From contig RGUL01000004.1 in the NCBI GenBank assembly GCA_010027845.1, forward strand, positions 1,810-65,809: 64,000 nucleotides of DNA, given 5' to 3'. The position numbers and the translations under genes are program-made. The notes under the pieces were generated by a model, which searched no databases, was not told the origin of the DNA, and was given only the letters and a program-made list of their open reading frames with translations. Shown piece by piece: positions 20,537-44,584 of this stretch (the stretch's first letter is position 1; each line of letters opens with the position of its first letter). Source of the stretch: Gammaproteobacteria bacterium. GTDB taxonomy: Bacteria; Pseudomonadota; Gammaproteobacteria; Steroidobacterales; Steroidobacteraceae.

Positions 20537-21529
20537 TCAACGATCGCAATCGACGACGACCTTGCCGATCACTTCGCGATTCAAAAGCTGCTCGATCGCA
20601 CGGCCACCCTCGGCGAGCGGAAAGCGGGCCGATACTAACGGATGAATCTTTCCCTCTGCATACATGGTGAGCAGCTCGCGCAATGCTGCATCGTATTTTT
20701 TCGGCTCTTGCCGACGCGCGGCCCCCATGAACACGCCGCGGATGTCACAGCCTTTCAGGAGGGGCAAGTTGAGTGGAATGCGCGGAATGCCGGCAGGGAA
20801 CCCGATGACGAGATAACGCCCGCGCCACGCCGCAGTGCGCAGCGCGGGCTCGGCGTAATCGCCGCCGACCGGATCGAAGATCACGTCTGCGCCGCGCGCA
20901 CCACAGGCACTTTTGAAAGCGGCAGCGAGTGCCTTGCCGTCGCTAGGCTCGACGGGATAGACGACGACCTCATCCGCGCCCGCAGCGCGCGCGGCCCGTG
21001 CCTTCGTCTCGGTCGACACGGCGGCGACGACGCGTGCGCCTAGCGATTTGCCGAGATCAATCGCTGCGAGACCGACGCCGCCCGCGGCACCGAGGACGAG
21101 CAGTGTTTCGCCTGCTTTCAATTCACCACGATCGACGAGTGCATGATGCACGGTGCTGTAGGTCACGAGCACGCCGGCGGCGACGTCGAAGGGCATGGAG
21201 TCGGGCATCGGAATGCAGTGCGCGGCATCGACCACGAGCTTGTCGGCGAAGCCGCCATATTCGACATGTGCGATCACTCGATCGCCGATTTTGAGGCTCT
21301 TGACCTCAGGCCCCACCAAGTCGATGACCCCAGACGTTTCCAGACCCGGCGCGAAAGGCCGCGGCGGACGCATCTGGTATTTATCTTCGATCAGCAATGC
21401 GTCCGGAAAATTGACGCCGCAACAACGCACGGCGATTCGCACTTGGCTTGACCCGACCGTCGGGTCCGGCAGTTCGCGTAACACCAACGCGGCCGGCCCG
21501 CCGGCAACTTCACTCAATAACGCTCGCAT
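20537..21529 (-). CDS. NADPH:quinone oxidoreductase (MDR/zeta-crystallin family)
   Basis: GVNFPD..., GETLLVLGAAGGVGLAAIDLGK Rossmann motif, about 330 aa. Confidence 0.8.
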   Translation of the reverse strand: MRALLSEVAGGPAALVLRELPDPTVGSSQVRIAVRCCGVNFPDALLIEDKYQMRPPRPFAPGLETSGVIDLVGPEVKSLKIGDRVIAHVEYGGFADKLVVDAAHCIPMPDSMPFDVAAGVLVTYSTVHHALVDRGELKAGETLLVLGAAGGVGLAAIDLGKSLGARVVAAVSTETKARAARAAGADEVVVYPVEPSDGKALAAAFKSACGARGADVIFDPVGGDYAEPALRTAAWRGRYLVIGFPAGIPRIPLNLPLLKGCDIRGVFMGAARRQEPKKYDAALRELLTMYAEGKIHPLVSARFPLAEGGRAIEQLLNREVIGKVVVDCDR

Positions 21530-21645
21530 GCGGTTACCCCTCGAGTCTCACGACAACGGTAGCACGGGTCGTAAATTCGATTGACGCTACCGGTAAGCTT
21601 CATCGACACTCGCCTCCCCCGTCTGACCCGTATCCGCCGCGCCGA

Positions 21646-22155
21646 ATGCTCCGCCTTGCCGTTCCAGTGAACGCCGCCGCTTTGAAAGTCGCCGCTTTGA
21701 GCCTCGCAGTGCTTTGCGGCGCGCGCCTGATGCTCGGACCGCTCGCCGCAGCAGCACCCGCCACCGGACTGCGCATCGAGTCGCCCATGGTGCGCGAAAC
21801 GCTGCCGGGACAAACTACCGGCAGCGCTTACCTCGTCATTCACAACGAGAGCGACGTCGCCAGACGTTTACTCGGTGCTGCGACGCCAGCAGCCCGCGAA
21901 ATACAGATTCACGACATGTCGCTGCGCGATGGCATCATGCGTATGCGACAAGTCACCGACGGTGTCGCAATTCCGGCGCGCGGTAAAGTGGCCTTCGTCG
22001 CCGGCGGCCTGCATCTGATGTTGGTCGGACTGCAGGCACCCCTCAGCGCCGGAAGCGACGTACCGCTCACCTTGCGATTCGATCGTGGTGGCGAACTCAC
22101 CATACCGATACGGATCGTGTCGATCGACGATACGACGTCGCAACCAAAGAAATGA
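21646..22155 (+). CDS. Periplasmic copper chaperone PCu(A)C
   Basis: Start moved to ATG 21646 (signal peptide). AYLVIHN, IQIHDM...MRMRQV and GGLHLML (HxM) Cu(I)-binding pattern. Confidence 0.75.
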   Translation: MLRLAVPVNAAALKVAALSLAVLCGARLMLGPLAAAAPATGLRIESPMVRETLPGQTTGSAYLVIHNESDVARRLLGAATPAAREIQIHDMSLRDGIMRMRQVTDGVAIPARGKVAFVAGGLHLMLVGLQAPLSAGSDVPLTLRFDRGGELTIPIRIVSIDDTTSQPKK

Positions 22156-22724
22156 TACGGCTGCTCGTTTTGATCTTCACCGCGCTACTCGGGGCTTGTA
22201 GTGCGCCGGCGCCGTTCAACGCCTCCGAGGTGCCGAAACTCGACTATGGTCACGGCGTCGAGTTGCGCGATACCGAAGGCAAGGTTCATCGCATCGAAGA
22301 ATTCCGCGGTCGCGTGACATTGCTGTTCTTCGGTTTCACGCGCTGCCCGGACGTGTGCCCGACGATGCTGTTGCGACTCAAAAAGGTGCGCGACGCCGTT
22401 GGGCCGCTCGCTTCGAACGTACAAGTCGTTTTACTCAGCGTTGATCCGGAGCGTGACACGCCGGACATCCTGCGGGCCTACGTTAAACATTTCGATCCGT
22501 CGTTCATCGCATTACGGCCCGAACCCGAGCGACTCGAACAAACGCTGAAGGCATTCCGCGCGATCGCAATTCGGGTGCCGACCGCAGACGGCAGCGATTA
22601 CACCGTCGATCACTCGGCGACGATTTTCGTCTACGACCGCACCGGTGCCTTGCGCTTGATCGCGCAGCCGCAACTGGAGATCGATAAGCTCGCCGCGGAC
22701 GTCGCGCGCCTCGTTCGCGAGTGA
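22152..22724 (+). CDS. SCO1/SenC-family copper-binding thiol:disulfide protein
   Basis: CPDVCP (CxxxC), conserved DHSATIFVYD His, lipoprotein-type leader LLGAC. ATGA overlap with PCuAC. Confidence 0.85.
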   Translation: MIRLLVLIFTALLGACSAPAPFNASEVPKLDYGHGVELRDTEGKVHRIEEFRGRVTLLFFGFTRCPDVCPTMLLRLKKVRDAVGPLASNVQVVLLSVDPERDTPDILRAYVKHFDPSFIALRPEPERLEQTLKAFRAIAIRVPTADGSDYTVDHSATIFVYDRTGALRLIAQPQLEIDKLAADVARLVRE

Positions 22725-22731
22725 GCGTTCG

Positions 22732-25428
22732 TTAGGATTTTTTTCGTCGGCGGGCGAACCACCAGCCGATCGAGCCCGCCACCGCAAACCCGACTGCCGG
22801 CCAGAGCAACGCCGGCAAAATCACACGTCGCAGTGCGTTCTGTGAAACCTGCGCACGCGGTTCATATCCCGCTGGTAACGGCAAAATTTTGTCGTCGCGC
22901 TCGAATTTTTGATAAGCGGCGCGCAAGCGCTCGAAGTCTTGCGGTCTCGTCCGACGCAAGTCGCGGGTCTCACCAGGATCCGCAGCGATGTCGAACAATT
23001 GCCAATTGCCGCTACCCACGGGCGGCATATTGCGCACCAACTTCAAATCACCGGCGAACAGCGCCGAATTTCCCGCCAGCTCGAACCCCACCGTCTCTTG
23101 CGGTCCGCGCGCCGATGCCGAAGCGCCACGTAACACCGGTACGAGGCTTTTACCCGAAATGGGTTCGATGCTGGGCGAAGGGTCGCCGACGGCGACGCCC
23201 GCGAGATCGAGTAGCGTCGGCGCGATATCCGTGACATGCGTGAAACTTTTGACGATGCGCCCACCGTGCTCGCCTGCCGGGAGCAAGCCAGGGCCGCGTA
23301 TCACGAGCGGCACCCTTAACGCGCCCTCACCCGCATAAAACTTATGAGTCGCGAGTGGTGCATTCGCCGCGCTCACCCAATTGGGGCCAATGGTGGCATA
23401 GGCGCCGGCACTGCCCATGCGATCGACCGCGCGGGTGTACTGCGTCATCAGCCACATACGCCCACTCAAATACTCGTAAGGATCGGAAGGCTCGGCTCCG
23501 TTATCGGACAAAAATACGAAAACGGTGTCTTGATCTTGACCGAGTGCACGGATCGTTTCGCGCAGGCGGCCGATTTCCGCGTCCATCGTCTCGGCCATCG
23601 CCGCATAAACTTCCATGCGTCGCGCGTCGTAGCGTCGTCGTTGCGGTGATAGCGAGTTCCACTCCTCGATACCGGGCCACTGCGCTGGTGCGGTGTTTGC
23701 CGGCAGCAGACCGAGCTCGATCGCCCGCTCGCGACGTCGATCGCGTACCACCTGCCATCCGGCATCGTACCTTCCATGCTGCCGCGCCATCGCCTCTGCG
23801 GGGGCCTGCAGCGGAATGTGATTCGCTTGAAATGCGAGGTACAACATGAACGGCGGCGGCTCACCCGCAGCGGTCTTGCGGATGGACCAATCGTTACGCA
23901 AGTAGTCGATCGCGCGATCGACGTAGTAGCGCGACGAATAGAATTCTTTGGGCATCTGCGTCGACTTGCCATCTTCGAACCAAGCGACACGATCGGTCAG
24001 CGCTAAATATCTTTGATCGGTACGCCAGTTATCCGAGCCGCTGTCACCTTGAACGATTGAGCGATCAAAGCCACGCGCCGGCGGCAGGTTGTACTCTTCC
24101 TTACCGACGTGCCATTTACCCACCGCATACGTGCGATAGCCGTGCTGCTGCAGCCGCGAGCTCATAGTCACGACGTTGCGATCGAGCACGGTCAGATAGC
24201 CGGGTTTACCCTCAAGTTGCGGTGGCACGGATTCGTGCATCGCACCGACGCCGGTACGATGACTATTGACACCAGTGAGCAGCATCGCGCGTGTCGGCGA
24301 GCATTCGCTCGCCACGTGAAAGTTAGCGAAGCGCGTGCCTTGGCTCGCTAACGTGTCGATGTTCGGCGTACGAATTTCGCTGCCGAACGCACCGATGTCG
24401 GTGTAGCCGAAATCGTCTGCGACGATCACCACGATGTTCGGCCGTCGCTGCGGGATATCTTTGTTTGCGGTCGCGGGGATCGAGCGCACGGTCCGAAAGC
24501 CGACGTGTGACGTGCCGAGCGAGGGATCTGCGGGCTGACGCGAACCGCTGCGATAGCGCTCGCAAAAGTCCGACGAACAAAGATGCGAACCACCTTTGAT
24601 GACGTGTTTGCCGGCTTTTTCTGGATCCGATCGTTTAGCGTCCGCGGCGGTCGCCGGTGCGACCGCGTCCGAATACCAATCGGTGGTCCACTCCCAAACG
24701 TTCCCGACCATGTCGTACAAGCCGCGCGCGTTGGCGGGGAAACAACCGGACGGAGCAACGCCGCGATAGCCGTCGTCCCCTTGGTCGAGCACCGGAAAAC
24801 TACCCTGCCACGTATTGGCCAGCCAACGACCCTGTGGGTCACGTCGCTCGGACTCGGGATCGTCGCTGGCCGCAACGTCGCCGCGCGCAGCCCACTCCCA
24901 CTCGAGTTCGGTAGGCAAGCGACGATCGCGCCACTTTGCATAGGCGGCCGCGTCTTCGAACGCGACGGCGGTTACCGGCTCGTCGTCGCGCGCGATCGAC
25001 CCGGCGCCGAGCGGGTTGCGCCAATTCGCCGAGGACTCGAGTCGCCAAGCACTCTGCCGGCGATCGAACACCGCCGCGCCCTGCGCCTTCCCGTCCGCGC
25101 CGATGCGCTCGGCGACGGTGACGTAGCCGGTAGCTTTGACGAAGGCCGCAAATTGCCCGTGCGTCACCTCGGTCGCGTCGATGTCGAAATCGTTAACTAC
25201 GCCGACACCGCCGACCCGCTCCTCGGGCCAGCGCGTCACGTCGCCACGATTCAGCCGACCACCGCGTACCGTAACCGTGCGACCGATCGCAGCGCTGCCG
25301 AGACACGCTGCGGATATCTTCGAAGTCGCCGTCGTCGCGCCGTTCGGCGGCAATGCCGCACGCTCGCAACCACTCAAAAAAATGCCGGCGCCGACGAGCG
25401 CGACCAGCAGAGTCCTCCGTTCGATCAC
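22732..25428 (-). CDS. Fusion protein: lipoprotein leader + formylglycine-generating enzyme (FGE/SUMF1) domain + type I (FGly) sulfatase-family hydrolase + C-terminal TM anchor
   Basis: GTG start in a GTGA overlap with the upstream stop. Lipobox FLSGC. FGE blocks RLPTELEWEWAARG, GNVWEWTTDWY and GGSHLCSSDFCERYRSGSRQ. Sulfatase blocks NIVVIVADDFGYTD and ASECSPTRAMLLTG. Tail LPALLWPAVGFAVAGSIGWWFARRRKKS. Confidence 0.85.
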   Translation of the reverse strand: MIERRTLLVALVGAGIFLSGCERAALPPNGATTATSKISAACLGSAAIGRTVTVRGGRLNRGDVTRWPEERVGGVGVVNDFDIDATEVTHGQFAAFVKATGYVTVAERIGADGKAQGAAVFDRRQSAWRLESSANWRNPLGAGSIARDDEPVTAVAFEDAAAYAKWRDRRLPTELEWEWAARGDVAASDDPESERRDPQGRWLANTWQGSFPVLDQGDDGYRGVAPSGCFPANARGLYDMVGNVWEWTTDWYSDAVAPATAADAKRSDPEKAGKHVIKGGSHLCSSDFCERYRSGSRQPADPSLGTSHVGFRTVRSIPATANKDIPQRRPNIVVIVADDFGYTDIGAFGSEIRTPNIDTLASQGTRFANFHVASECSPTRAMLLTGVNSHRTGVGAMHESVPPQLEGKPGYLTVLDRNVVTMSSRLQQHGYRTYAVGKWHVGKEEYNLPPARGFDRSIVQGDSGSDNWRTDQRYLALTDRVAWFEDGKSTQMPKEFYSSRYYVDRAIDYLRNDWSIRKTAAGEPPPFMLYLAFQANHIPLQAPAEAMARQHGRYDAGWQVVRDRRRERAIELGLLPANTAPAQWPGIEEWNSLSPQRRRYDARRMEVYAAMAETMDAEIGRLRETIRALGQDQDTVFVFLSDNGAEPSDPYEYLSGRMWLMTQYTRAVDRMGSAGAYATIGPNWVSAANAPLATHKFYAGEGALRVPLVIRGPGLLPAGEHGGRIVKSFTHVTDIAPTLLDLAGVAVGDPSPSIEPISGKSLVPVLRGASASARGPQETVGFELAGNSALFAGDLKLVRNMPPVGSGNWQLFDIAADPGETRDLRRTRPQDFERLRAAYQKFERDDKILPLPAGYEPRAQVSQNALRRVILPALLWPAVGFAVAGSIGWWFARRRKKS

Positions 25429-26528
25429 AACACGAGGCGCCGGTCCGCTTCGTGCAAACGTCCGGCAAGCTGCTGCAACAGTTCGCGCGTTTCGGTCGGG
25501 TGCTCGGCGATCACGTGTGCGAAATTGTCGATCGTTACCTTACGCAGCGATGCCGCTCGGGTCACGACCACCGATGCCGACCGCGGCAGTTGTAACAGCA
25601 GACCCATCTCACCCACCCACTCGCCCGGACCCAGTTTTGCGAGGACTAGCTCGCTGCCGTCGGCATTGCGCTTACGAACTTCGAGTTCGCCGCGCTCAAC
25701 GACGTACGCGCGATCGGCAATGTCACCTTCGTGCAAGACCACCGCACCGACCGGAAATAAAGTATGGCTACAGTCGGTGAAGATGCAGCGATAGCGCTCG
25801 GTGTGGAACAACTTCGCGCATCCGGCGCGCGCGCGAGCACCGAACGTCCAGCCATGTACGAAAACGGCGAGTACCGCGCCGGCAACCGGTCCGACGCAAT
25901 ACAACCAAAATCCGTCGAATACGGACGTCAACAACGCCGGCGCGAAGCTGCGCGCGGGATTTAGGCTCGTGCCCGAGACCGGCGCTTCCACGAACACCAG
26001 CAGCGCGACTAAAAGACCAGCGAAATACGGTGTGCGCGCGGCATGACGCGGTTCGTTGACGCAGTAGAGGATCGTGAACATCAGCATGAAGGTGATGACA
26101 AATTCCGCGCCGAGTGCGATCCCGGTCGAATATTCGGCGCCAGGCGTGGTCAAACCGAGTTGCACGCTTTGCGCTGCAGCGCCGCCGACGAGCGCGACGA
26201 TCATGACGCCCAATACCGCACCGGACATTTGCGCGATGCAGTAGGCGACCGCGTCCGGCCCCGTCACCTGACCTTTGACCCAAAACGCCAATGTGACAGC
26301 CGGGTTCAAGTGCCCGCCGCTGCGTTGTCCGAGCGGCGAAAGCACGACCGCCGTGCCACCGCCTGCGAACAACAAGCCCGTGCATAAGCGACGCAGTGGC
26401 TCGTTCGGAATCAACTCGCGCATGATGCTACCGTCGGACCACATGACGGTGACGGCGCCGATGCCCACGATCATCATGATCGCGGTGCCGAGAAACTCTG
26501 CAAAATATTCTGGTAGGTGTGATTTCAC
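25425..26528 (-). CDS. MIP-family channel (aquaporin) fused to a C-terminal cyclic-nucleotide-binding domain
   Basis: EYFAEFLGTAIMM, HLNPAVT (26298-26306) and SLNPARS (25953-25961). The C-terminal CNB has the phosphate-binding cassette GEMGLLLQLPRSAS. GTG 26528 is preferred over ATG 26648, which would overlap the upstream gene by 70 nt. Confidence 0.8.
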   Translation of the reverse strand: MKSHLPEYFAEFLGTAIMMIVGIGAVTVMWSDGSIMRELIPNEPLRRLCTGLLFAGGGTAVVLSPLGQRSGGHLNPAVTLAFWVKGQVTGPDAVAYCIAQMSGAVLGVMIVALVGGAAAQSVQLGLTTPGAEYSTGIALGAEFVITFMLMFTILYCVNEPRHAARTPYFAGLLVALLVFVEAPVSGTSLNPARSFAPALLTSVFDGFWLYCVGPVAGAVLAVFVHGWTFGARARAGCAKLFHTERYRCIFTDCSHTLFPVGAVVLHEGDIADRAYVVERGELEVRKRNADGSELVLAKLGPGEWVGEMGLLLQLPRSASVVVTRAASLRKVTIDNFAHVIAEHPTETRELLQQLAGRLHEADRRLVL

Positions 26529-26578
26529 GAGTATTCGTTTCCGATCAAGCCGAACTGACCCCGAAACGAATATACCGG

Positions 26579-28378
26579 TCAGCGCGCGACTTTGGCAGGC
26601 CCCGTTATTTTTTGAGGCGACACCCCCACTGGCGCATTCACGGTCCATTCATGATCGATTTGACCGTTACGCCGGGACGCGTTCTCGTCTTTCGGCAACC
26701 AAGCTCGAACGTACTGCGAGGTCACTTTGCCTGGCGTGACGGTCACACGCAGATGTCCGGAGCTGCTCACGATCGTCCCGGCGACATAGTGATAGTCGCT
26801 GGCGATGTTTGCACCACTATTGTTGTTCTTAGCGCTCGGTTGCGGAACGGTTTGATAGACGACACCGTCGAGTTCTTGGCGGACGTACACATGATCGTGT
26901 CCTTTGAATACTGCGGTGACTTTATATTTGACCAACAGGTCGTGGATCGGCGCCGTCCAACCCGGGCGCTTTTGCGCAAAGCCCGCCGAGCCGTCCGAAT
27001 TCTTACCGCCCCACTCGTAAAACGGCGCCGCCTCGATACCTCCGCGCATCGCGCCGTCGAGTCCGCCGACGATGTTGTGCAGGAACACGAATTTGAACGT
27101 CGCCGTACTTTTCGACAGCGTCTCGACCAGCCATTGATACTGGCGCGCACCGAGCGTGAAGTTCCAAGCATCCGCACCGGGCTTCGTGGCGGTGTTCCAA
27201 AAGGGATCGAGCACGATGAATTGGGCGTCACCCCAGTTCCAGGAGTACCACGCGACACGATTACCGGCGACCGGATCGACGAACGAGTCGCCCGTGTAAA
27301 ACGCATTCGGCGTCGGAATCGGAAAAAACTCGAGTCGTGCTTGCGATGCCCACATCGGCAAACTCTGCGCCGAGCCGTCGACCAGCCAGCCGAGCTCGGC
27401 GTCGTGGTTACCGTTCACCAAAAATAGTGGCGCAGAATGGGTCAACAATCCGAAGTTGGCGCGCTCGTAACGGTATCGCGCATCGAGCGTCGCTTTGCTC
27501 GTTGGTTGCGCGATGACCGCCGTGAGCGGCTCGGCATGCTTCTCAGTCATGAAGGTATCGCCGAGATCGACATGAAAATCCGGTTGATCGGCGAGTATGT
27601 TCGCGAGCGTGCGTTTGTACTGATCAACGTCGGAATTTTCGTCCATGTGCGAGTCGGCCTGCACCGTGAACGTGAAACTTTGACCCTTCGGTCGCGCGGT
27701 TTGAAACCGGTAATTCTTAGAAACAGTATCGGTTGTGCTACCGGTCTGTCGCAGAATCACGCGATATTGATATGCGGTGTTCGAACGTAATGCGTTCAAG
27801 GTCACCTCGAGAACTTTACCGGCGACGAGATTTTGCGTTGCAGACTGGGTTTCGCTCGCATCGGTCGCGGCTTTGTAGGCGATCGTCAGTGTGCCGCTAC
27901 GATCCACCGAATACAGTTTCAGCCGCATCGACGTGTCGGTGGGCGCACCGAGGACGATATCCCCGGGGAAATCGGCCGCGACGCTGACGGCGGCAGCTGG
28001 CGTGGCGGTCGCTGCGCTTGACGCGGCGCTGTTGCCGATCCGATTGGTCGCGATAACGGAGCAGGAATAGGCGGTGCCGTTCGTCAAACCACCAACGGTG
28101 ATCGGACTCGCCGCGCCCGTGCCGGTCGCGGTCGTAGAACCGGCCGCGCAACTCGCGGTGTAGCCGGTGATCGCCGCACCACCATCGCTCGACGGCGCGG
28201 TGAAACTCAGGGTGATCTTGCCATCGCCGGCGGCAGCGGCGACGGATGATGGTGCGCCCGGAACCGTTGCGGCGGGCGTCACCGGCGTCGGCGCGACCGG
28301 TGTCGACGCTGCGCCACCCCCGCCCCCACACGCCGCCAACGATGCGATGAGCAGACTAGGCCAAAGAATTTTGTGCAT
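26579..28378 (-). CDS. Lipoprotein: Fn3 domain + purple-acid-phosphatase-like metallophosphoesterase
   Basis: Start moved to ATG 28378 (MHKILWPSLLIASLAACGGGGG lipobox). Fn3 block ITLSFTAPSSDGGAAITGYTASC. Metallophosphoesterase motifs ADSH, LGDTF, VNGNHD and KGHDHVY. Confidence 0.7.
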   Translation of the reverse strand: MHKILWPSLLIASLAACGGGGGAASTPVAPTPVTPAATVPGAPSSVAAAAGDGKITLSFTAPSSDGGAAITGYTASCAAGSTTATGTGAASPITVGGLTNGTAYSCSVIATNRIGNSAASSAATATPAAAVSVAADFPGDIVLGAPTDTSMRLKLYSVDRSGTLTIAYKAATDASETQSATQNLVAGKVLEVTLNALRSNTAYQYRVILRQTGSTTDTVSKNYRFQTARPKGQSFTFTVQADSHMDENSDVDQYKRTLANILADQPDFHVDLGDTFMTEKHAEPLTAVIAQPTSKATLDARYRYERANFGLLTHSAPLFLVNGNHDAELGWLVDGSAQSLPMWASQARLEFFPIPTPNAFYTGDSFVDPVAGNRVAWYSWNWGDAQFIVLDPFWNTATKPGADAWNFTLGARQYQWLVETLSKSTATFKFVFLHNIVGGLDGAMRGGIEAAPFYEWGGKNSDGSAGFAQKRPGWTAPIHDLLVKYKVTAVFKGHDHVYVRQELDGVVYQTVPQPSAKNNNSGANIASDYHYVAGTIVSSSGHLRVTVTPGKVTSQYVRAWLPKDENASRRNGQIDHEWTVNAPVGVSPQKITGPAKVAR

Positions 28379-28389
28379 TGCGTGCGATC

Positions 28390-29871
28390 TCAAGGCAAAG
28401 AATACGAAAATGCGACGGTGCCCGACACCTTTCCGGGGCCTTCGTCGACCGGCAACCACACCCGCACGTATTCGACTTTGATGCCGGTCGGCGAAACCGT
28501 GACGCGGGTGTAGCCCGAGTTCGGATATTTGTCACCGCCGGTGTAGGCATCGTCATTTCGAAATGCGTATGCCGGGTCAGCCGGCTCGGGGAGCGTTTGA
28601 TAAGTGACGCCGTCGAGCGCCTCGCGCACCCAAATATGATCGTGTCCTTGGAAGAAAATGTTCACCTTGTTTGCGACGAGCAAACGATGAATCGGTAAAT
28701 TCCACGTCGGGCGTCGGGTCGCGAACTCGTCGACACCAGCGGCCGACTTCCCGCCCCACTCCCAAAGATTCGCGATCTCGATACCACCGCGACCGGTGCC
28801 TAGCACGTGGTGCGCAAAGACGAACTTGTATTTCGCCTTGCTCGTTTCGAGCGTCGTCTTCAGCCACTGATATTGACTGTCACCGTGCGTGACTTCCCAG
28901 GGGCTCGAACGTTTCGAACCGCCGCCGAAAACGTTGTCGACTGGCACCGGTGAGGACCAATACGGATCGATCACCACGAACAACGCGTCGCCCCAGGTCC
29001 AAGAATAGTAGTTGCGCAGTTGGCCGATGAAGGCGACCGGCTCGCTATTGCCGCCGTAAAACCGATCCGGTGCTGGTTGCGAGTACAAAGAATTCCGTGC
29101 ATTTTGCGCCCACACGGCCACGTTGTTCGGTGTGCCGTCGAGCAGATACCGTGCGGCCTGTTCGTGATTACCATTGACAAGAAATAGCGAAGCGCGTCGC
29201 GCGACCGTCGAAAAATATGGTCGCTGCAACGTGTAGCGGCCACGCACCTGCGCCTCGTTGATAGTGGTGGCGTCTAATGTATCGACGCTGAAATCGTCGC
29301 CCATCGCGATGTAGAAATCGGGTCGGTCCGCGGCCACTGCATCGAGCGTACGTTGGTAGAGCGTCGGATCGAATTCGGACTTCAAGCGCTCCGGATGCGA
29401 ATCACCCTGCAACGCGAACATGAAAGTCGAACCGGCCGGTCGCGCAGTTTGGAATTGCAGTTCATCGGTGGTCTGCGTCGTCGAGCCGTTCGCAGGCACG
29501 AGACTCACGCGGTAGTAGTAACGCGTATTAGCCGCCAAGTTCACCACGGCAACTTCGAGCGGTTTGTCTGCCGACAAATTAGCTGTCGCGGTTTGGGTGT
29601 CGAGTCGACCGGGCACCGTGCCGTAGGCGACGGTGACGGCCCCCGATTCGGTGGTCGAATAAAGATTCAGCTTGATTGAATCGCTGGTCGGCGAGGCGAG
29701 TACGATGTCGCCTTTGAAGGTGGTCGTCGCAGTGGTGGTCGGCGGCGTGGGTGTCGACGGGGCGGTCGGTGTGTTAGCAGCCGAAGACGGCGCCGACGAT
29801 CCACCACCACCGCAAGAAATTATCATCGCCGCACCGATCGCTACGACAATGTTGCGCAGTTGAACCGTCAA
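28390..29871 (-). CDS. Lipoprotein: purple-acid-phosphatase-like metallophosphoesterase (paralogue of 26579..28378, without Fn3)
   Basis: TTG start with GGAG 9 nt upstream. Lipobox IISCGGGG. Motifs GDSH, MGDDF, VNGNHE, FAHH and QGHDHIW. Confidence 0.7.
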   Translation of the reverse strand: MTVQLRNIVVAIGAAMIISCGGGGSSAPSSAANTPTAPSTPTPPTTTATTTFKGDIVLASPTSDSIKLNLYSTTESGAVTVAYGTVPGRLDTQTATANLSADKPLEVAVVNLAANTRYYYRVSLVPANGSTTQTTDELQFQTARPAGSTFMFALQGDSHPERLKSEFDPTLYQRTLDAVAADRPDFYIAMGDDFSVDTLDATTINEAQVRGRYTLQRPYFSTVARRASLFLVNGNHEQAARYLLDGTPNNVAVWAQNARNSLYSQPAPDRFYGGNSEPVAFIGQLRNYYSWTWGDALFVVIDPYWSSPVPVDNVFGGGSKRSSPWEVTHGDSQYQWLKTTLETSKAKYKFVFAHHVLGTGRGGIEIANLWEWGGKSAAGVDEFATRRPTWNLPIHRLLVANKVNIFFQGHDHIWVREALDGVTYQTLPEPADPAYAFRNDDAYTGGDKYPNSGYTRVTVSPTGIKVEYVRVWLPVDEGPGKVSGTVAFSYSLP

Positions 29872-29999: not shown

Positions 30000-31850
30000 A
30001 TGAAAGTTTTCCTCCAGCGTGCGCTGAGTTCAGCGCTCTTGATGGCCACTCTGTCGAGTTGCGGCGGTGGCGGCGGCAGTGGCGCCACGACGCCTACGAC
30101 CCCTACGACGCCCACTCCGCCGGCCACGGTGAGCACACCCGGCGCACCGACCGGCGTCACTGCGACCGTCGGTAATGCGACGCTGACGATCGCCTTCACG
30201 GCACCGAGTTCGAACGGCGGTGCGACGATCACGGGCTATACGGTCACTTGCACCGCCGGCGCGAACTCTAAAACCGCCACCGGCAGCGCAAGTCCGATCA
30301 GCGTGACGGGACTCACGAACGGCACCAATTACAGTTGCTCGGTCACCGCGACGAATTCCGCAGGTACCGGCGCCGCATCCACGAGCGTCACCGCGACGCC
30401 GGCCGCGCCTACCTCGAGCTTCGCGTTGACGAGTACAGCCGGGACGGCAGGTAGCGCGATGGCCGCGGACTACACATGTGATGGCACGGGCTCCTCGCCA
30501 CAACTATCTTGGACCAACGCGCCAGCTGGGACCAAAGAATTCGCTCTACTGATGACCACGCTGCCGGGCGACGGCACGACCAAGTGGAACTGGGTGCTGT
30601 ACGGCATCCCCGCAGCGACCAAGTCGCTCAACAAAGATACCTTCGGTATCGGCACGACCGGCGTCGGCAGCGATGGTCCGTTTGCCGGCTACCAGCCACC
30701 CTGCTCCCAAGGCCCGGGGGCGAAAACGTACACGTTTACGCTGTATGCGCTCTCTGCGACGCCCGATTTGTCTGCCGCCGGCTCGACCGTCAACGGCTCG
30801 ACGATCACGAGCGCGATCGCCGGGATTACTTTGGGTTCGGCCACGCTCGATCTCAACTACACGCGTCCGACGAATGCCACCGGTTCATCGACCGCCTGCG
30901 GCTATGTACGTAGTTCGCTCGGTGGTTCGACCACCGGCAACGCGAGCGTCGCCTGCGATGCTAACTACGCTTACGTCAGCTCGAACAGTCTCGCCACCCA
31001 CACGATGATGAATGGCATCACCGCCACCAACCTGCAGGTCCCGACCGCGCAAAATTTCTTAGGCGCCAACGGTTGGAAGATTCCGCTCGCACCGGCGATC
31101 GCCGCGAGCACGGTTTCCGCGGTCGACGGACCGATCGGTATCGCCGTGAACGGCGTGTTGATTTTCAATCCTTGCAAACAAGGTGGTTGCCAGAATGGTG
31201 ACACCAAGGTGCTCGGTGAACTCGACGTCTGTAACGGCCATGCGGGTCGAGCCGACGATTATCACTACCACGCTGCACCGGTGTGCATGATGCAAACCAA
31301 AGCGGCCAACTATTGGGATACGCACCCGGTCGGCTGGGCGCTCGATGGTTATGCGATCTATGGTTATAACGACGCCGACGGTAAGGTCGCGGCACGCGAC
31401 ACGGTGTGCGGCGGCAACACCAATGCCGTCGTCAACGGTCCGAGCGGCTACGCCTACCACGTCACCGACGCATCGCCGTACGTGCTCGCCTGCTTTCGCG
31501 GCACGCCGAGCCCGGACCTGGCGAACCAAAGCAGCAAATTCTCGCCGATGCGTCAGCCCCCCGTGCAGCCTTTCAAAGTTTCGAACATGACCTTGGCGAC
31601 CGACGCCAAAGATGGCTATCAAGTGCTGCAGTTCACCTCGGCGATCAATTTCACGACTAACGAAACGGGCTCCGACACTTATTCGAACGCACCCGGCACT
31701 TATCGCATTCGCTACAAGCAACTCGGCGGCGCGGAGCTCACCAACGCGCTCACACAATCCGGTAACGGGAATAAAACGGCGTGCTGGGCGTTCCAATTCA
31801 CCGATTCGGCAGGCGCGACGACCCAACCGAACATCACGTATTGCCGTTGA
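30000..31850 (+). CDS. Lipoprotein: Fn3 + PEBP (YbhB/YbcL-type) + YHYH-motif domain
   Basis: Lipobox LSSCGGGGG. Fn3 block LTIAFTAPSSNGGATITGYTVTC. PEBP-like DYTCDG...SPQLSWTNAP..EFALLM...YTFTLYAL. GHAGRADDYHYHAAP with YHYH at 31260-31271. Confidence 0.65.
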   Translation: MKVFLQRALSSALLMATLSSCGGGGGSGATTPTTPTTPTPPATVSTPGAPTGVTATVGNATLTIAFTAPSSNGGATITGYTVTCTAGANSKTATGSASPISVTGLTNGTNYSCSVTATNSAGTGAASTSVTATPAAPTSSFALTSTAGTAGSAMAADYTCDGTGSSPQLSWTNAPAGTKEFALLMTTLPGDGTTKWNWVLYGIPAATKSLNKDTFGIGTTGVGSDGPFAGYQPPCSQGPGAKTYTFTLYALSATPDLSAAGSTVNGSTITSAIAGITLGSATLDLNYTRPTNATGSSTACGYVRSSLGGSTTGNASVACDANYAYVSSNSLATHTMMNGITATNLQVPTAQNFLGANGWKIPLAPAIAASTVSAVDGPIGIAVNGVLIFNPCKQGGCQNGDTKVLGELDVCNGHAGRADDYHYHAAPVCMMQTKAANYWDTHPVGWALDGYAIYGYNDADGKVAARDTVCGGNTNAVVNGPSGYAYHVTDASPYVLACFRGTPSPDLANQSSKFSPMRQPPVQPFKVSNMTLATDAKDGYQVLQFTSAINFTTNETGSDTYSNAPGTYRIRYKQLGGAELTNALTQSGNGNKTACWAFQFTDSAGATTQPNITYCR

Positions 31851-32818: not shown

Positions 32819-32953
32819 GAACCGCGGCGCTATGCTAATTCGAGAAGGTTTCGCTGAGATGAAATAGGTTCGATGTAACGTCGCCGTCGATTCATAAATC
32901 ATTAATGAATGAATGGAATTCTTAATCGTTCAGGCGGAACGGACCCGAGCGAT

Positions 32954-34000
32954 ATGAAAAAGACTTTACGTTTGATCGTAGGCCTTTCCGGTATCGTGCA
33001 CGCTAGCGACTTATTAGCCGAAGTCGCAGATGGAACGGTGACAAGATTGTCACCGACCGAAGTTCAGCTGAGATGGACCGGCGCTACGCAAGTCGACGTT
33101 CTACGGCGATCGTACGATCGGAGCGTGCCGGAACAATGTTTGGTCACGTCGCACAACAATTCTTCGCTACTGGTAAAGGACGACGGTATTCCGGCTCTTT
33201 ACGTTATTCGTGACGTGACCGACGGTTCTCAGATCGTCGCGTCCGAGCGTATTGTACCGTTAACGCAAGGATCCAACTTTCGCGACGTCGGTGGATATCG
33301 CACGTCCGATGGTAAACGTGTGCGATGGGGGATGATTTTTAGAAGCGGCGGACAGCCACAGCTCAGCGACCGCGACCTTGAGATCGTGAAGAGCTTGAAG
33401 TTGCGGCGTATTATTGATCTTAGATCCCGCGAGGAGCGATCGATCGCTCCGACGCGGATCGATGAGGTGCCCTACGAGGCGGTCGGATACTCGTTCACGA
33501 CATTGGTGCCGGCCGGAACGCCCACTCCAGCATCGGGCGGTGTCTACAATGGCTTCGCATCGTTACTTGCGCCACACCTGCGCATCATCACTCGCAACAT
33601 TTTGAGCGGCGAGACACCTTTGGTTTTTAATTGCTCAGCCGGACAGGATCGAACCGGGTTTGTCGCAGCAATTTTGCTTGCGGCCATCGGCGTCGAACGG
33701 GACGATATCGAGCGAGACTATCTGGCGTCGACTGGTTTTCGGCAACCGCAATACGAAATGCCAGCGCTCGACCCTCAAACGGTGTCGGCGGACTCGGTCG
33801 CGATGTTTTTCGCCCGCGCGCAGCAAAGCCCGGATTGGCTGCGCCCTAAGCCGCTGGTGACGAGTTCCGGTGAGCCGCTCATTCGGATCGCGATGCGAGA
33901 TGTCGAGGCGCGCTGGGGTAGCGTAGAGAATTATTTGAAAGCTGAGGTGGGGCTAAGCGATTCTGAATTGCAGCGCTTGCGAGCGATTTTGAGCGATTGA
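32954..34000 (+). CDS. Secreted tyrosine-phosphatase-fold protein (Y_phosphatase3-like)
   Basis: Signal peptide MKKTLRLIVGLSGIVHA. NFRDVGGYRTSDGKRVRWGMIFRSG. Active-site loop NCSAGQDRTG (CX5R). The ORF-track start at 32909 is also possible. Confidence 0.7.
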   Translation: MKKTLRLIVGLSGIVHASDLLAEVADGTVTRLSPTEVQLRWTGATQVDVLRRSYDRSVPEQCLVTSHNNSSLLVKDDGIPALYVIRDVTDGSQIVASERIVPLTQGSNFRDVGGYRTSDGKRVRWGMIFRSGGQPQLSDRDLEIVKSLKLRRIIDLRSREERSIAPTRIDEVPYEAVGYSFTTLVPAGTPTPASGGVYNGFASLLAPHLRIITRNILSGETPLVFNCSAGQDRTGFVAAILLAAIGVERDDIERDYLASTGFRQPQYEMPALDPQTVSADSVAMFFARAQQSPDWLRPKPLVTSSGEPLIRIAMRDVEARWGSVENYLKAEVGLSDSELQRLRAILSD

Positions 34001-34074: not shown

Positions 34075-36489
34075 TTAAAATTTTACGCCGAACTCGATGC
34101 CGAAAGTGCGCGGTTCGTTGAAGAATCCGCCGTAGCCGGTCGTCGGCGCGGCCGTGCCTCTGTAGAAGACATGTTCTTCGTCGAGCAGGTTACGCGACCA
34201 AATCGAGACGGATGCCATACCACCACCTACCGGAATGTCGGCGAGTGACATACGTCCGTTCACGACCATAGAGCTGTCGCCTTTGGTGTTCGAGAGTGTC
34301 ACGGTCCGAACGCCACCTGGCGCGTCTGCAAAAGCGAAATCCGTGTTGGCCGTATAGAAACCGTCACTGAAATTCGCGTCGAGGTGCAATGCAAACTTGA
34401 AGCCCATGAACGGAGTCTGGTAATCCGCCGCCACGCTGCCCGCTTTCTCCGGCGAGTAGGTCTGATAGATCGGAATCGGCGAATTGATGATCGTAATAGC
34501 CCCGCTAACAATTTGCGGGAAGGGATTCTGCGTCGCCGGAATCTCTGCTTTGTTGTAGGCGTAGCTCGCGGAGAGCGTCAAATCGTCGGTCGCCGCGAAC
34601 GTAAGATCCGCTTCGACGCCCTGCAATTTACCCTTGCCCGGCGCGTTGATGGTTTCGGTCGTCGTACGGTTCGTCAGCACGTTGCCCTGTAGATAGGGCG
34701 CGCTGAAGTCGACCTGAATATCTTTGTACTTCCCGTCATACACGGCAACGTTCAGACGCGCGCGGCGATCGAAGAATTCCATTTTCGAACCGATTTCCAC
34801 CATCTCGACCGTCTCCGGACCGAACGGCTTATAGGTCAACGAACGCGAGTTCGCGCCACCAGATTTATATCCCGATGCGTACCGCGCGTAAGCCAACACG
34901 TCGTCGGTCACGTCATAAGCGACATTGAAGATCGGGTCGAATCGCGACCAAGAAGTATTCAAAGGATTTGGTGACACGAGCGGCGTCGTCGTTCCGGGCT
35001 GAAAGAAAATCTGCCCTTGCGAGCCAACCGGGAAATTGACGTCGTTGATCGTCAGCATTCGACCGACCTTCTCGTCCTTCGTCCAACGACCACCGGCGGT
35101 GACGTGTAATTTGTCGTCAAGACCCTGCGGCGTGTACGTCGCCTGGCCGAACACACCCTGACTCGTCGTCGTGACTTTTGAGGCGCGGTCGATTCGCTGC
35201 GCCAAGTAATCGATCGAGCGCGGCAGGCTCCCTATGCCAATCGCATCGGTGAATGCATTGGTCGTGAACGCCCGCGCGTTATCCTGAACCGTCTCGCGAA
35301 AATATAGTGCACCGGCGGTCCACTTCAATCGCTCGGTGGCGCCGATGAAGTCGATTTCTTGGCTGAACTGGTCCTGATTGAAAAGGGCCAAGCTGTAGCG
35401 ACCGAACTGCTGATTCAGTACCGTCGCCAATGTCGGCGATTTAAAGGCTCCGACGGACAGTGCCGCCGAACCATTATCCCACTGATCCTGCGTGAGGTCG
35501 CGATAGGCAGTGATCGACTTGACCGTCAAAGAATCGGAGACCGTCCATTCACCGGTGAGTCTATGTCCCGACGTCTTGCCAACACTTTTCTGCTGGGGCA
35601 CGCCGAAGGTGGCGGTGTCGATGCGTTTAGTGCTGGCGGTGTTGCCCGCGACCGGAACGAGCGTCGTGAGTGGTGTCGGGCCGAGATACTGCTGATAAAG
35701 CGTCGTCGTCGCATCGTACGCTACGTCATATGCATAGTCGGCCGAAATATCCGCTGTCGGCGCCCAAAGCACGCGAGCACGAAAACCGCGGCGCTCGAAA
35801 CCTCCGAAGTCTTCCGCTTGGGGCAGCGGGTTCGCCACCCAGCCGTCTCGACCGGTGAGCACCCCGCCGACTTTCACCGACAAATCCGCAAACTTTGGGA
35901 AGTTGAGTTGGAACTCGCTCTGATAGCCGTTGAAGTTCGCTACGCTAGCTTTCGCCACCAGGCCGAACTCACCCGTCGGTCGCTTGGTCGTGATCGACAC
36001 CGCGCCGCCTTCGGTATTGCGGCCGAATAAAGTTCCCTGCGGGCCTTTCAACACTTCGATACTGTCCACGTCGTACAAAGCTACGCCGAGACCCTGCGGA
36101 CGGCCTAAATAAACACCGTCGACATACATTCCGACGCCCTGATCGCGCGCTGGCTGGTTACTGTCCAATAGGACGCCGACGCCACGAATGTTGGTGATCA
36201 ACGCGCCAGGACGCGAGAAAAACGGTGCGATCTTGAGGGACGGGATAGCGCCATCACCGAGATCGACGAGCGAATAGACCTGTCGATCTTCTATGCCGGC
36301 CGCCGAGAGCACCGAAATCGCGATCGGTGTTTCTTGCAGGTTTTCTCTGCGCTTTTGCGCGGTGACCGTCACTTCCTCTAAACCACCCGATGTCGACTCT
36401 GATGCCGTGACCGGCGCCGCAGTTGCCGCTGGGACGAACGAACTGAGAATTAAAGTCGAAACGATCGCAATCGAGAGTTTCCGTTCCAT
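34075..36489 (-). CDS. TonB-dependent receptor
   Basis: Signal peptide, LEEVTVTAQKRRENLQETPIAISV plug start, C-terminal ...TFGIEFGVKF. Confidence 0.9.
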   Translation of the reverse strand: MERKLSIAIVSTLILSSFVPAATAAPVTASESTSGGLEEVTVTAQKRRENLQETPIAISVLSAAGIEDRQVYSLVDLGDGAIPSLKIAPFFSRPGALITNIRGVGVLLDSNQPARDQGVGMYVDGVYLGRPQGLGVALYDVDSIEVLKGPQGTLFGRNTEGGAVSITTKRPTGEFGLVAKASVANFNGYQSEFQLNFPKFADLSVKVGGVLTGRDGWVANPLPQAEDFGGFERRGFRARVLWAPTADISADYAYDVAYDATTTLYQQYLGPTPLTTLVPVAGNTASTKRIDTATFGVPQQKSVGKTSGHRLTGEWTVSDSLTVKSITAYRDLTQDQWDNGSAALSVGAFKSPTLATVLNQQFGRYSLALFNQDQFSQEIDFIGATERLKWTAGALYFRETVQDNARAFTTNAFTDAIGIGSLPRSIDYLAQRIDRASKVTTTSQGVFGQATYTPQGLDDKLHVTAGGRWTKDEKVGRMLTINDVNFPVGSQGQIFFQPGTTTPLVSPNPLNTSWSRFDPIFNVAYDVTDDVLAYARYASGYKSGGANSRSLTYKPFGPETVEMVEIGSKMEFFDRRARLNVAVYDGKYKDIQVDFSAPYLQGNVLTNRTTTETINAPGKGKLQGVEADLTFAATDDLTLSASYAYNKAEIPATQNPFPQIVSGAITIINSPIPIYQTYSPEKAGSVAADYQTPFMGFKFALHLDANFSDGFYTANTDFAFADAPGGVRTVTLSNTKGDSSMVVNGRMSLADIPVGGGMASVSIWSRNLLDEEHVFYRGTAAPTTGYGGFFNEPRTFGIEFGVKF

Positions 36490-41578: not shown

Positions 41579-42822
41579 GCGGCGCCCACACGGATTCCGG
41601 GGCCGAACGTAAGCTCGCGTTCCGCATGGCGATCACAGCGATTTTTACCCTCGCCGGCTATGAGTCGTTACGCTCAGCAGCCACGGTGTTGTTGAAGACG
41701 GCTTACGGCCCGAACATCCTGCCGCTTGCGATGGCGACTACCCCGATCGTCACATTGGTCGGCCTCTGGGCGTATAGCAAACTCTTGACCGCGCTCGGAC
41801 CACGACGAACTGTCGTGACGACGACACTAGGATTTTCACTGCTTATAACGCTCTCGTTCATCGCGATTCATAGCGGACTACAGCCGGCGACGCTGCTGCT
41901 CTACTGGCTCAAAGAGTTCTATATCGTGCTGTTGATCGAGCAATACTGGAGTTACCTCAACTCCAAATTGACCGAACCGAGTGCCCGACGCCTCAACGGT
42001 CCGATCACCGGAGTCGCAGGGTTCGGCAGCATCATGGGCGGCTGGATCGTATCGACAGCGGCCTTACCGCTCGGTACCGAGGCATTGCTATTAATCGGTG
42101 CTGCGACCTTGTTGCCTGCCGCTTGGCTTGTCAATTCCACCTACCGCCATTTCGGCGAGCCCGCACCACGTGAAACGTCGTCACCGGTCAGGCAGCGCTC
42201 TGCACTCGGTTGGGATTTGATCCGTAACGACCGGCGACTCGCCGCGCTCTTAGCGGTGGTGCTCGTCACCCAGATGCTCTCTTCGCTACTGGAACTGAAG
42301 TTTCAGAATTTGTCGTCGCTCGCGTATGCTGGTCGGCGTGATGCAGAGACGGCCTTTCAAGGGCAGTTTTGGTTCTATCTCAACTCGGTTGCTTTGTTTT
42401 CTCAATTCTTACTGACGCCTTTGTTCCTCACACGGTTCAGCCTGCGACAAGTTCACTTGTTGATGCCGGCCGTCCAACTCGGCGCCATCGGCTGGGCACT
42501 GCTCGCGCCCTCTCTCTGGTCGGTTAGCGCCGCGTTCATGGCCTTTAAAGCATTGGACTACTCGCTGTTTCGCGGCGCCAAGGAACTCGTTTATTTACCG
42601 CTAAGTTTCGATGGTCGTTACCGGACCAAAGAATTGATCGACGTCTTCGGCTATCGTTCCGGCAAAGCCGTTTCATCGCTCAGTATCGCGGCCCTACAAA
42701 AGACAGGTCTCGATCTATCGACTTGGTTTTTGCCGGCCGCTTTCGCGCTCGGCACGCTCTGGATGGGACTGTCGCTACCGCTGACCTCGATGCCAAAAAA
42801 ACCGCTCGACGATCAACCCTGA
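41575..42822 (+). CDS. 12-TM transporter (MFS / TLC-type nucleotide-antiporter-like)
   Basis: ATGA overlap with the HD oxygenase gene. Hydrophobic periodicity suggests about 12 TM segments. The N-terminal ERKLAFRMAITAIFTLAGYESLRSA resembles Npt/TLC-like carriers. The family call is weak. Confidence 0.45.
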   Translation: MSGAHTDSGAERKLAFRMAITAIFTLAGYESLRSAATVLLKTAYGPNILPLAMATTPIVTLVGLWAYSKLLTALGPRRTVVTTTLGFSLLITLSFIAIHSGLQPATLLLYWLKEFYIVLLIEQYWSYLNSKLTEPSARRLNGPITGVAGFGSIMGGWIVSTAALPLGTEALLLIGAATLLPAAWLVNSTYRHFGEPAPRETSSPVRQRSALGWDLIRNDRRLAALLAVVLVTQMLSSLLELKFQNLSSLAYAGRRDAETAFQGQFWFYLNSVALFSQFLLTPLFLTRFSLRQVHLLMPAVQLGAIGWALLAPSLWSVSAAFMAFKALDYSLFRGAKELVYLPLSFDGRYRTKELIDVFGYRSGKAVSSLSIAALQKTGLDLSTWFLPAAFALGTLWMGLSLPLTSMPKKPLDDQP

Positions 42823-44554: not shown

Positions 44555-44584
44555 GCCGGCCCTCTGATGGGAGGGTCAACTTCA

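Follow-up and report, generated by a model that had tools for sequence, protein, structure and literature searches.

Gene and domain architecture

The stretch of DNA analysed here, 64,000 nucleotides of contig RGUL01000004.1 from a Steroidobacteraceae genome (assembly GCA_010027845.1) and called the window throughout, carries on its minus strand a gene whose product joins a MIP channel, i.e., a pore of the aquaporin type, to a cyclic-nucleotide-binding (CNB) domain. The coding sequence of this MIP-CNB fusion (25425..26528, minus strand; GTG start at 26526-26528, TGA stop at 25425-25427) follows from the list of open reading frames (ORFs) and the sequence itself, and it specifies 367 amino acids. 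An earlier note made from the letters alone, the sequence-only reading, had proposed the fusion, and both domains are indeed found in one ORF with Pfam scores far above the thresholds. MIP (PF00230) scored 155.3 bits against a cut-off of 25, over residues 5-225 and profile positions 8-222 of 222; cNMP_binding (PF00027) scored 67.1 bits against a cut-off of 27.5, over residues 258-343 and profile positions 4-89 of 89. The two models are those with which that reading had suggested an HMM check, and the curated cut-offs are passed by both. The motifs it quoted, GGHLNPAVT, TSLNPARS, VVLHEGDIADRAYVVERGELEV and GEWVGEMGLLLQLPRSASVV, are all present in the translation.

A monomer model was built with AlphaFold2 on 56 family sequences. 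It has a mean pLDDT of 86.7; its six transmembrane (TM) helices and the two half-helices bearing the NPA boxes are followed by a beta-roll and a pair of helices at the C-terminus. The best PDB matches of this model in Foldseek are the AqpM structures 3ne2 and 2evu (34% identity, TM-score of 0.82 on the target), and matches to aquaporin structures reach E values of 5e-13.

Residue conservation was counted over 56 aligned members of the fusion family, the sample to which all counts out of 56 given below refer. Mean pairwise identity is 0.61 in the pore domain, 0.57 in the CNB beta-roll and 0.51 in the B/C helices. The phosphate-binding cassette is the top segment with 0.77, a Cys/His motif at residues 237-255 has 0.73, and residues 230-236 directly before that motif have 0.26. 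The C-terminus of MIP proteins is cytoplasmic by established topology, i.e., it faces the compartment holding cyclic nucleotide monophosphates (cNMP); given this topology and the domain order, the CNB domain is placed in the cytoplasm, C-terminal to the last TM helix.

The minus-strand ORF is open without interruption from 26648 down to 25425, and the sequence-only reading had left the choice between GTG 26528 and ATG 26648 to be checked. GTG 26528 is the probable start of the gene, because homologues start at an aligned MKxHLPEY, because ATG 26648 would overlap the upstream gene (stop at 26579) by 70 nt, because the 40 extra residues gained from ATG 26648 have no counterpart in homologues, and because a 98%-identical relative reads ATG-CTC-GTG where the window reads ATA-CTC-GTG. 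ATG 26648 was ruled out on these grounds, i.e., the overlap, the N-termini of the homologues and the relative's ATG two codons before the GTG.

The pore domain and its selectivity filter

The MIP channel domain comprises residues 5-229 (25842..26516, minus strand, as are all features of the gene given below) according to Pfam, AlphaFold2 and Foldseek. The pore helices of the model are located at residues 2-30, 43-63, 76-85, 90-115, 135-158, 166-185, 191-201 and 209-229. Both NPA boxes and the arginine after the second one, as described in the sequence-only reading, are present and invariant in the family: the first box N75-P76-A77 (26298..26306) is found in 56/56 members, the N and P of the second box N190-P191-A192 (25953..25961) likewise in 56/56, and the filter arginine R193 (25950-25952), directly following it, in all 56.

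The remaining filter positions were assigned in a MAFFT alignment with 75 diverse MIPs. Position H2 is F54 (26367..26369; F in 55/56), position H5 is V178 (25995-25997; V in 56/56), and the remaining filter residue is T187 (25968-25970; T in 56/56). The same alignment contains a one-residue insertion, S64-P65, before loop B, which the fusion family has in common with its closest relatives. Counting the customary 20 residues to the NPA box would have given A55 as H2; this residue was ruled out, since the insertion puts F54 there.

The filter is therefore read as F-V-T-R. The filter of AqpM is F-I-S-R, and AqpZ and AQP1 have a His at H5. From these residues, the fusion protein would have an AqpM-like filter with a wider and more hydrophobic constriction compared with the His-bearing AqpZ/AQP1, and this suggests water and/or a small uncharged solute as permeant, not the strict water selectivity of the AqpZ type. 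The description of the channel as a standard MIP in the sequence-only reading thus holds for the MIP fold and the NPA boxes but not for the filter, which is non-AqpZ and AqpM-like.

The C-terminal sensor domain

The CNB domain comprises residues 256-364 (25437..25763), as delimited by Pfam, phmmer and AlphaFold2. In the model, the strands lie within residues 255-332 and are followed by the B/C helices at 333-342 and 344-364, which end three residues before the C-terminus. The CNB part alone matched PKA regulatory subunits, PKG and CRP in phmmer at E values from 1e-19 to 1e-10. Its phosphate-binding cassette, W304-V-G306-E307-M-G-L-L-L-Q-L-P315-R316-S-A318-S-V (25569..25619), was located by the alignment with PKA and by conservation; it lines up with the PKA regulatory subunits (GEMGLLLQLPRSASV versus GELALLYNAPRAATV; the PKA type is GELAL...PRAAT). 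In classical CNB domains the Gly-Glu pair contacts the ribose (2'-OH), and Arg-[ST/A]-Ala contacts the phosphate. These residues are kept throughout the family (G 55/56, E 54/56, R 55/56, A 56/56). The complete CNB domain with a canonical cassette that the sequence-only reading had described is hence recovered by three approaches, i.e., the Pfam score of 67.1 bits, the PKA alignment, and the modelled beta-roll and helices. Judged by its residues, the domain is probably competent to bind a cyclic nucleotide. It has no N-terminal helical bundle; the Cys/His motif stands in that place.

An invariant Cys/His motif at the junction

Between the two domains the sequence-only reading had assumed a neutral linker of about 20 residues. 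That part of the description did not survive the alignment, in which the stretch carries an invariant Cys/His motif, C237-AKL-x-H242-TE-x-Y-x-C248-x-F250-xx-C253-x-Y/H255 (25764..25820), directly after TM6. C237, K239, L240, H242, C248, F250 and C253 are invariant in 56/56, and the spacing of the motif is C-x4-H-x5-C-x4-C. When the fusion protein was scanned, no Pfam model covered the motif.

The motif is not restricted to the fusion. In the form CAKLHHxNxxRCIFxCxY it makes up the extreme C-terminus of stand-alone MIPs of 250-290 residues, which occur in Nitrospira, Nitrospinota, Vicinamibacteria and betaproteobacterial metagenome-assembled genomes (MAGs) (L004-L008 and P0130-P0262 bear the motif). 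These stand-alone proteins resemble the fusion in the N-terminal HxPEY, the loop-B insertion and the motif after TM6, and their pore is 36-48% identical to that of the fusion; they differ in the filter, e.g., with a Met in the F54 (H2) column in L004-L008. An x[ACGS]KLxH tail is present in 67/107 of the nearest MIP representatives; the strict Cys3-His form is found in about 35 of those listed.

Other modules are fused right after the motif in members of this tailed clade, namely VOC/glyoxalase (five representatives), DM13, DoxX, and an NDH2-like flavoprotein together with a CNB domain. Some of the VOC/glyoxalase fusions follow an extra predicted TM segment, and one tailed MIP has an N-terminal GH15/trehalase-like domain. 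All these fused members, with modules at either end, are P0139, P0142, P0150, P0160, P0168, P0170, P0234, P0238 and P0267. P0139, with the architecture MIP + NDH2-like + CNB, and P0124, which represents a second subclade, both carry a CNB domain, which argues that the MIP-CNB pairing was selected repeatedly. The pore of P0124 is nearest to stand-alone Cys-tailed MIPs and to P0139 (53-61% identity), and the main fusion family is outside its best eight matches; its CNB module is 50-57% identical to those of most members of the main fusion family. The CNB module either moved between subclades or was lost many times, with the Cys/His motif as the constant junction either way. We hypothesize that the motif is a candidate metal-binding, redox or metalloid-sensing knuckle which may couple the pore to the sensor. 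The varied attachments suggest that the Cys/His-tailed MIPs are a modular family, whose channels are regulated or coupled to enzymes.

Distribution of the fusion

Homologues were searched in 5.8 billion proteins, and the best 120 clusters at 90% identity were taken. Both Pfam domains are carried by 119/120 of these clusters, mostly in proteins of exactly 367 residues that are 52-98% identical to the query; this is the database count of the architecture that the sequence-only reading had proposed to make. Where a source is named, it is a MAG of Nevskia, Gammaproteobacteria, Bryobacteraceae, Acidobacteriota, Terriglobia or Bdellovibrionota, with Betaproteobacteria added via L001. The database names of the members do not go beyond 'aquaporin' or 'aquaporin Z'.

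When 1.84 billion representatives at 50% identity were searched exhaustively with HMMER, the fusion was confined to about five to seven clusters, with P0121, P0122 and P0124 at full length, P0097, P0126 and P0211 as fragments, and P0139 with its additional NDH2-like domain; in sequence space this is therefore a compact family, though it is found in several phyla. A GTDB genome scan with generic MIP peptides returned at least two full-length fusion loci, a number that has little weight for the taxonomic spread; the same scan brought the Cys-tailed stand-alone MIPs to light.

Gene neighbourhoods in other lineages

In 6/10 lineages examined, the MIP-CNB gene adjoins a gene for a GH63/MGH1-like hydrolase of about 890 residues. 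In five of those six the next gene encodes an SDR of the glucose-1-dehydrogenase-like type (NCBIfam NF005559, 237 bits with a cut-off of 215), and in the sixth lineage (L091) a zinc-type alcohol dehydrogenase takes the SDR's place. These loci are at L084 9178-12785, L088 9308-12820, L092 7181-10739, L094 7443-10946, L096 7272-10782 and L091 9108-11777. Relatives without a CNB domain have similar neighbours: the GH63-like gene is about 2.7 kb upstream of the MIP gene in L003 and immediately upstream in L008, and an SDR gene is immediately upstream in L006. Since the GH63-like/SDR association is also seen in these CNB-less relatives of other phyla, the carbohydrate/osmolyte setting appears ancestral, and it points to alpha-glucoside, osmolyte or storage-carbohydrate metabolism as the ancestral setting of the MIP clade.

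For the hydrolase there is neither a name in NCBIfam nor a sequence relative in the PDB. We considered that it could be a glucosylglycerol hydrolase (GghA/Slr1670), which would point to glycerol as the permeant; this is unsupported, as the protein matches GH63/MGH1-like models and not GHL5, and Slr1670, the cyanobacterial GghA, has been described as a GHL5-family protein.

Two of the six lineages, L088-L090 and L096, are related (neighbour proteins 86-90% identical) and have a richer surrounding. Divergent glgC- and glgA-like genes are near, and L088/L089 also have a glycogen phosphorylase gene. A GAF-GAF-PAS class III cyclase gene is close by, with the specificity residues Lys (in KFIGD) and Thr (in YTVIGDGVNLASR), which we take to be the adenylate-cyclase pattern of class IIIb. 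A second CNB protein of 816 residues, combining Pyr_redox_2, CNB and a 4Fe-4S ferredoxin domain, is encoded there as well (cyclase and Pyr_redox-CNB-ferredoxin loci at L088 2424-4718 and 12822-15272, and at L096 431-2722 and 10817-13104). This clustering in L088/L096 suggests that the genes form a local module for cAMP signalling, in which two CNB proteins are the effectors. From the adenylate-type cyclase beside the gene in these relatives, cAMP is more likely the ligand than cGMP; please note that this preference for cAMP is circumstantial, as it comes from the specificity residues of the neighbouring cyclase.

Comparison with known channels

AqpM (M. marburgensis structures 2evu/2f2b and A. 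fulgidus 3ne2) shares both NPA boxes with the fusion protein, and the filters of both combine Phe, an aliphatic residue in place of His at H5, a small hydroxyl residue and Arg. It differs in being a protein of about 245 residues without a cytoplasmic domain, to which the fusion family adds the loop-B insertion, the Cys/His tail and the CNB domain. In phmmer, AQP4, PIP, TIP and AqpM score much alike (80-90 bits), so the AqpM grade is not singled out by them. E. coli AqpZ has the MIP fold, the NPA boxes, and the filter Phe and Arg in common with the fusion; it has the H5 His where the fusion has Val178, and the fusion is about 135 residues longer. The NCBIfam equivalog for AqpZ (NF003838) gave 81.3 bits against a cut-off of 256, and because of this score and of the Val at H5, i.e., a filter other than F-H-T-R, the label 'aquaporin Z' is unjustified.

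Two other assignments were rejected. A GlpF-type aquaglyceroporin would have W-G-F-R instead of F-V-T-R and Asp instead of Ser after the second NPAR, and GlpF structures were absent from the best 60 PDB sequence matches. In the AQPX grade (Tesan et al. 2021, PMC8355241), the filter has neither the Arg at LE2 nor the aromatic residue of TM2. This grade was ruled out, as R193 and F54 are conserved in the fusion family.

On the side of the sensor, MloK1, SthK and the CNG/HCN channels have a CNB domain fused directly after the last TM helix of a tetrameric channel, as does the fusion protein if it forms the tetramer that its MIP fold implies. MloK1 and CRP have the RSA-type cassette found here, and the SthK CNB domain is detectably homologous to that of the fusion (E value of 7e-8). 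In the fusion, as in these channels, the binding of a ligand would be expected to move the lid and in turn to change the pore at its cytoplasmic end. The pores are different: MloK1, SthK, CNG and HCN have a shared S5-P-S6 cation pore, whereas the fusion has the MIP fold with one pore per subunit and a neutral permeant would be expected. The connection is different too, i.e., a helical C-linker in HCN/CNG/SthK versus about 25 residues, non-helical in the model and holding the invariant 19-residue Cys/His motif, in the fusion. No ion-channel family was present among the Pfam and PDB matches of the fusion protein. Because the pore fold and the C-linker both differ, the fusion is outside the cyclic-nucleotide-gated ion-channel family.

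The gated eukaryotic aquaporins resemble the fusion in the proposed outcome, occlusion of the cytoplasmic pore mouth, which is achieved by loop-D capping in SoPIP2;1 and by an N-terminal plug in Aqy1; SoPIP2;1 and AQP0-calmodulin structures are among the Foldseek fold matches. In SoPIP2;1, Aqy1, AQP0-calmodulin and AQP1 (with its reported cGMP effects), gating is brought about by loops, termini, phosphorylation, pH, Ca2+ or a separate protein. To our knowledge, none of SoPIP2;1, Aqy1, AQP0 and AQP1 has a covalently fused ligand-binding domain, and none of them is bacterial.

Proposed gating and alternative explanations

We consider it somewhat probable, at roughly 0.6, that this single polypeptide is a cAMP-regulated channel for a neutral solute or water, i.e., that its permeability is regulated by cNMP. 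In the mechanism that we have in mind, the MIP tetramer would assemble with one sensor domain hanging under each pore, and cytoplasmic cAMP would bind to the canonical phosphate-binding cassette. The B/C-helix lid would then move, this movement would pass via the short, rigid and probably metal-bound Cys/His knuckle, and the cytoplasmic mouth of the pore would open or close. Direct gating by cAMP or cGMP is what we infer from the fusion; the identity of the ligand, the binding of a metal, the geometry of the tetramer, the direction of gating and the permeant are likewise all features that we infer. Gating is supported by both domains being intact, by the cassette being the most conserved segment and matching those of PKA and CRP position by position, and by the retention of the fusion across phyla. 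It is also supported by the invariance of the Cys/His motif while the seven residues before it vary freely, and by the adenylate-type cyclase and the second CNB protein near the gene in L088-L090 and L096.

Several points weigh against this regulated-channel reading. Each MIP monomer has its own pore, so that the 'gating ring' logic of tetrameric cation channels is not automatically transferable. The confidence of the AlphaFold2 model is low in the linker (pLDDT 62-66). RSA-type cassettes are found in cAMP binders and cGMP binders alike, and the cassette does not tell one ligand from the other. A tblastn search of the 64-kb window found no GH63-like, SDR, cyclase or second CNB gene, i.e., neither a cyclase nor another CNB protein is encoded in it. 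The gene context varies between lineages, so the permeant stays unfixed by the neighbours.

The pore could instead be always open, as AqpZ is assumed to be, with the CNB domain recruiting or regulating partners, controlling stability or localisation, or buffering cAMP locally. We regard this as unlikely, though it is the strongest of the alternatives. It would agree with the 2019 review and with established knowledge, in which no post-translational gating has been demonstrated for a bacterial aquaporin, with the AlphaFold2 model, in which there is no confident contact between CNB domain and pore, and with the recurring neighbours (the GH63-like enzyme, the SDR, and the Pyr_redox-CNB-Fer4 protein), which are possible partners. 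Those neighbours are not constant across lineages, however, and the invariant motif keeps the sensor no more than about 25 residues away from TM6, which would be a poor design for a free adaptor. In the known characterised membrane-protein-CNB fusions, i.e., MloK1, SthK, HCN/CNG and SLC9C1, the CNB domain regulates the transport domain to which it is fused, and by analogy this precedent would speak for regulation of the pore here as well. A different and distinctly improbable explanation makes the Cys3-His motif the primary sensor of a metal, metalloid or redox state, with the CNB domain as a modulator or cap and H2O2, H2S or a metalloid hydroxide as examples of the permeant. The motif is invariant, predates the fusion and ends hundreds of stand-alone MIPs; the clade is fused to redox/thiol-related modules (NDH2-like Pyr_redox_2, DM13, DoxX, VOC/glyoxalase); and filters of the AqpM-like kind have come under discussion for solutes other than water, H2S among them, all of which would fit. 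Against it, the C-x4-H-x5-C-x4-C spacing fits no Pfam model, and the stronger conservation of the cassette compared with the motif argues that nucleotide binding is under selection of its own. Control by the Cys3-His motif and gating by cNMP are not mutually exclusive.

It is very improbable, in our judgement, that the CNB-like domain binds a ligand other than cAMP/cGMP, or none at all. CNB folds in relatives of CRP/FNR do bind other effectors and some CNB domains are degenerate, a precedent to which the lack of a cyclase in the 64-kb window may be added; yet the Gly-Glu and Pro-Arg-Ser-Ala contacts are kept in at least 54/56 members and align with bona fide cAMP binders, and adenylate-type cyclases lie beside the gene in L088-L090 and L096. 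That the fusion is a sequencing or assembly error, or a pseudogene joining two genes, is effectively refuted; the sequence-only reading had named a sequencing error between the domains as a danger to its claim. One cluster gives some room for such a suspicion, P0097 (a JGI contig, 95% identical), which is frameshifted after about residue 214; against this stand the uninterrupted ORF in the window, the same continuous architecture in 119/120 independent clusters from many samples and phyla, the purifying selection on both domains and the junction motif, and a GC content at third codon positions of 0.72 that matches the 0.68-0.70 of the neighbouring genes. As for P0097 itself, the sole exception among the 120, everything from TM6 on, i.e., TM6, the Cys/His motif and the CNB domain, is lost through the frameshift, which reflects either a faulty assembly or a pseudogene present in one population.

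Significance

Bacterial aquaporins are generally treated as always-open pores which are controlled only through transcription. The sequence-only reading had stated that gating by cyclic nucleotides was, to its knowledge, not shown for a bacterial MIP, and our literature searches, which were aimed at the fusion and at prokaryotic aquaporin phylogeny, likewise yielded no paper in which a MIP-CNB fusion is described. Such a fusion is also absent from the 2019 review 'Prokaryotic Aquaporins', which reports regulation observed only at the transcriptional level and states that gating 'requires further investigation'. MIP-CNB sequences are already public under generic names and both domains are textbook ones. 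Within the literature covered, the Cys/His-tailed MIP clade and its modular fusions appear undescribed as well.

With a canonical sensor on an aquaporin fold, a single recombinant protein is enough to test the question of prokaryotic gating directly. Should gating be confirmed, the cyclic-nucleotide-gated principle would no longer be limited to cation channels but include channels for neutral solutes, the MIP field would gain a simple pore that a ligand can switch, which is of interest for biosensors and biomimetic membranes, and cAMP signalling would be tied to the water/osmolyte balance of soil and freshwater bacteria. The invariant Cys/His motif, for its part, defines a large MIP clade with modular fusions.

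A bolder version, to which we give slightly less than an even chance, is that the protein would be the first second-messenger-gated aquaporin, with a fused cAMP sensor, a metal-bound Cys3-His knuckle and minute-scale control of the flux of water or small solutes, tied to osmolyte/glycogen turnover. A more exotic sub-case would have the four sensors forming a ring that gates the central axis of the tetramer. If second-messenger gating is true, the Cys/His-tailed MIPs would be an unrecognised clade of regulated channels with interchangeable modules (CNB, NDH2-like, VOC, DM13, DoxX).

Surroundings of the gene in the window

Downstream, the TGA stop of the MIP-CNB gene lies within the GTG start of an FGE-sulfatase gene, forming a GTGA overlap at 25425..25428 (minus strand). 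This overlap had been pointed out in the sequence-only reading and is borne out; the same 4-nt overlap is found in L081, L082 and L097. Translational coupling of the two genes may reasonably be expected from it. The FGE-sulfatase gene (22732-25428, minus strand) encodes a lipoprotein of 898 residues with the lipobox LSGC and with FGE and sulfatase domains, and the MIP-CNB gene of the 98% relative is likewise followed by an FGE-sulfatase fusion gene. Among the lineages examined, the linkage with FGE-sulfatase is restricted to the window's sub-lineage, and it is a local rearrangement in the lineage of the window.

The FGE-sulfatase fusion itself is present in 2/120 sulfatase homologue clusters, the two closest only, and in an 89% relative (L097 10050-12808) FGE and sulfatase are encoded separately, by genes that each share 4 nt with the gene before; the fusion is therefore very recent. 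The taxon names of the sulfatase homologues point to Steroidobacteraceae or Nevskiaceae relatives. The FGE domain presumably matures the sulfatase of the same polypeptide. PCuAC and SCO1/SenC copper-chaperone genes (21448-22724, plus strand) converge tail to tail with the FGE-sulfatase gene, an arrangement conserved in relatives (L081 5395-6413, L097 12813-13831). Aerobic FGE is copper-dependent, and the PCuAC/SCO1 chaperones may supply copper to the periplasmic FGE domain.

Upstream, a weak sigma-70-like promoter match (CTGCCA-18-TATATT, 26569..26598, minus strand) came out of a consensus scan. It covers the last codons of the upstream gene, its stop codon (26579-26581) and the start of the 47-nt untranslated gap. 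In this region, sigma-70-like matches are no more numerous than in shuffled sequence, i.e., they are at chance level.

Secreted phosphoesterases are dense in the window: two purple-acid-phosphatase-like metallophosphatases (one with fn3), an fn3-PEBP-YHYH protein, a Y_phosphatase3 and a PhoD (26579-29871, minus strand; 30000-31850, plus; 32909-34000, plus; 42813-44432, minus). There are also four TonB-dependent receptors (34075-36489, 44567-47032, 54300-56516 and 56621-58573), and together this looks like a phosphorus-scavenging region. The listed GTG start of the fn3-metallophosphatase ORF, at 28459, overlaps the preceding gene by 70 nt (28378-28459, minus strand); translation more likely starts further downstream, at a Met that precedes a lipoprotein signal (MHKILWPSLLIASLAAC).

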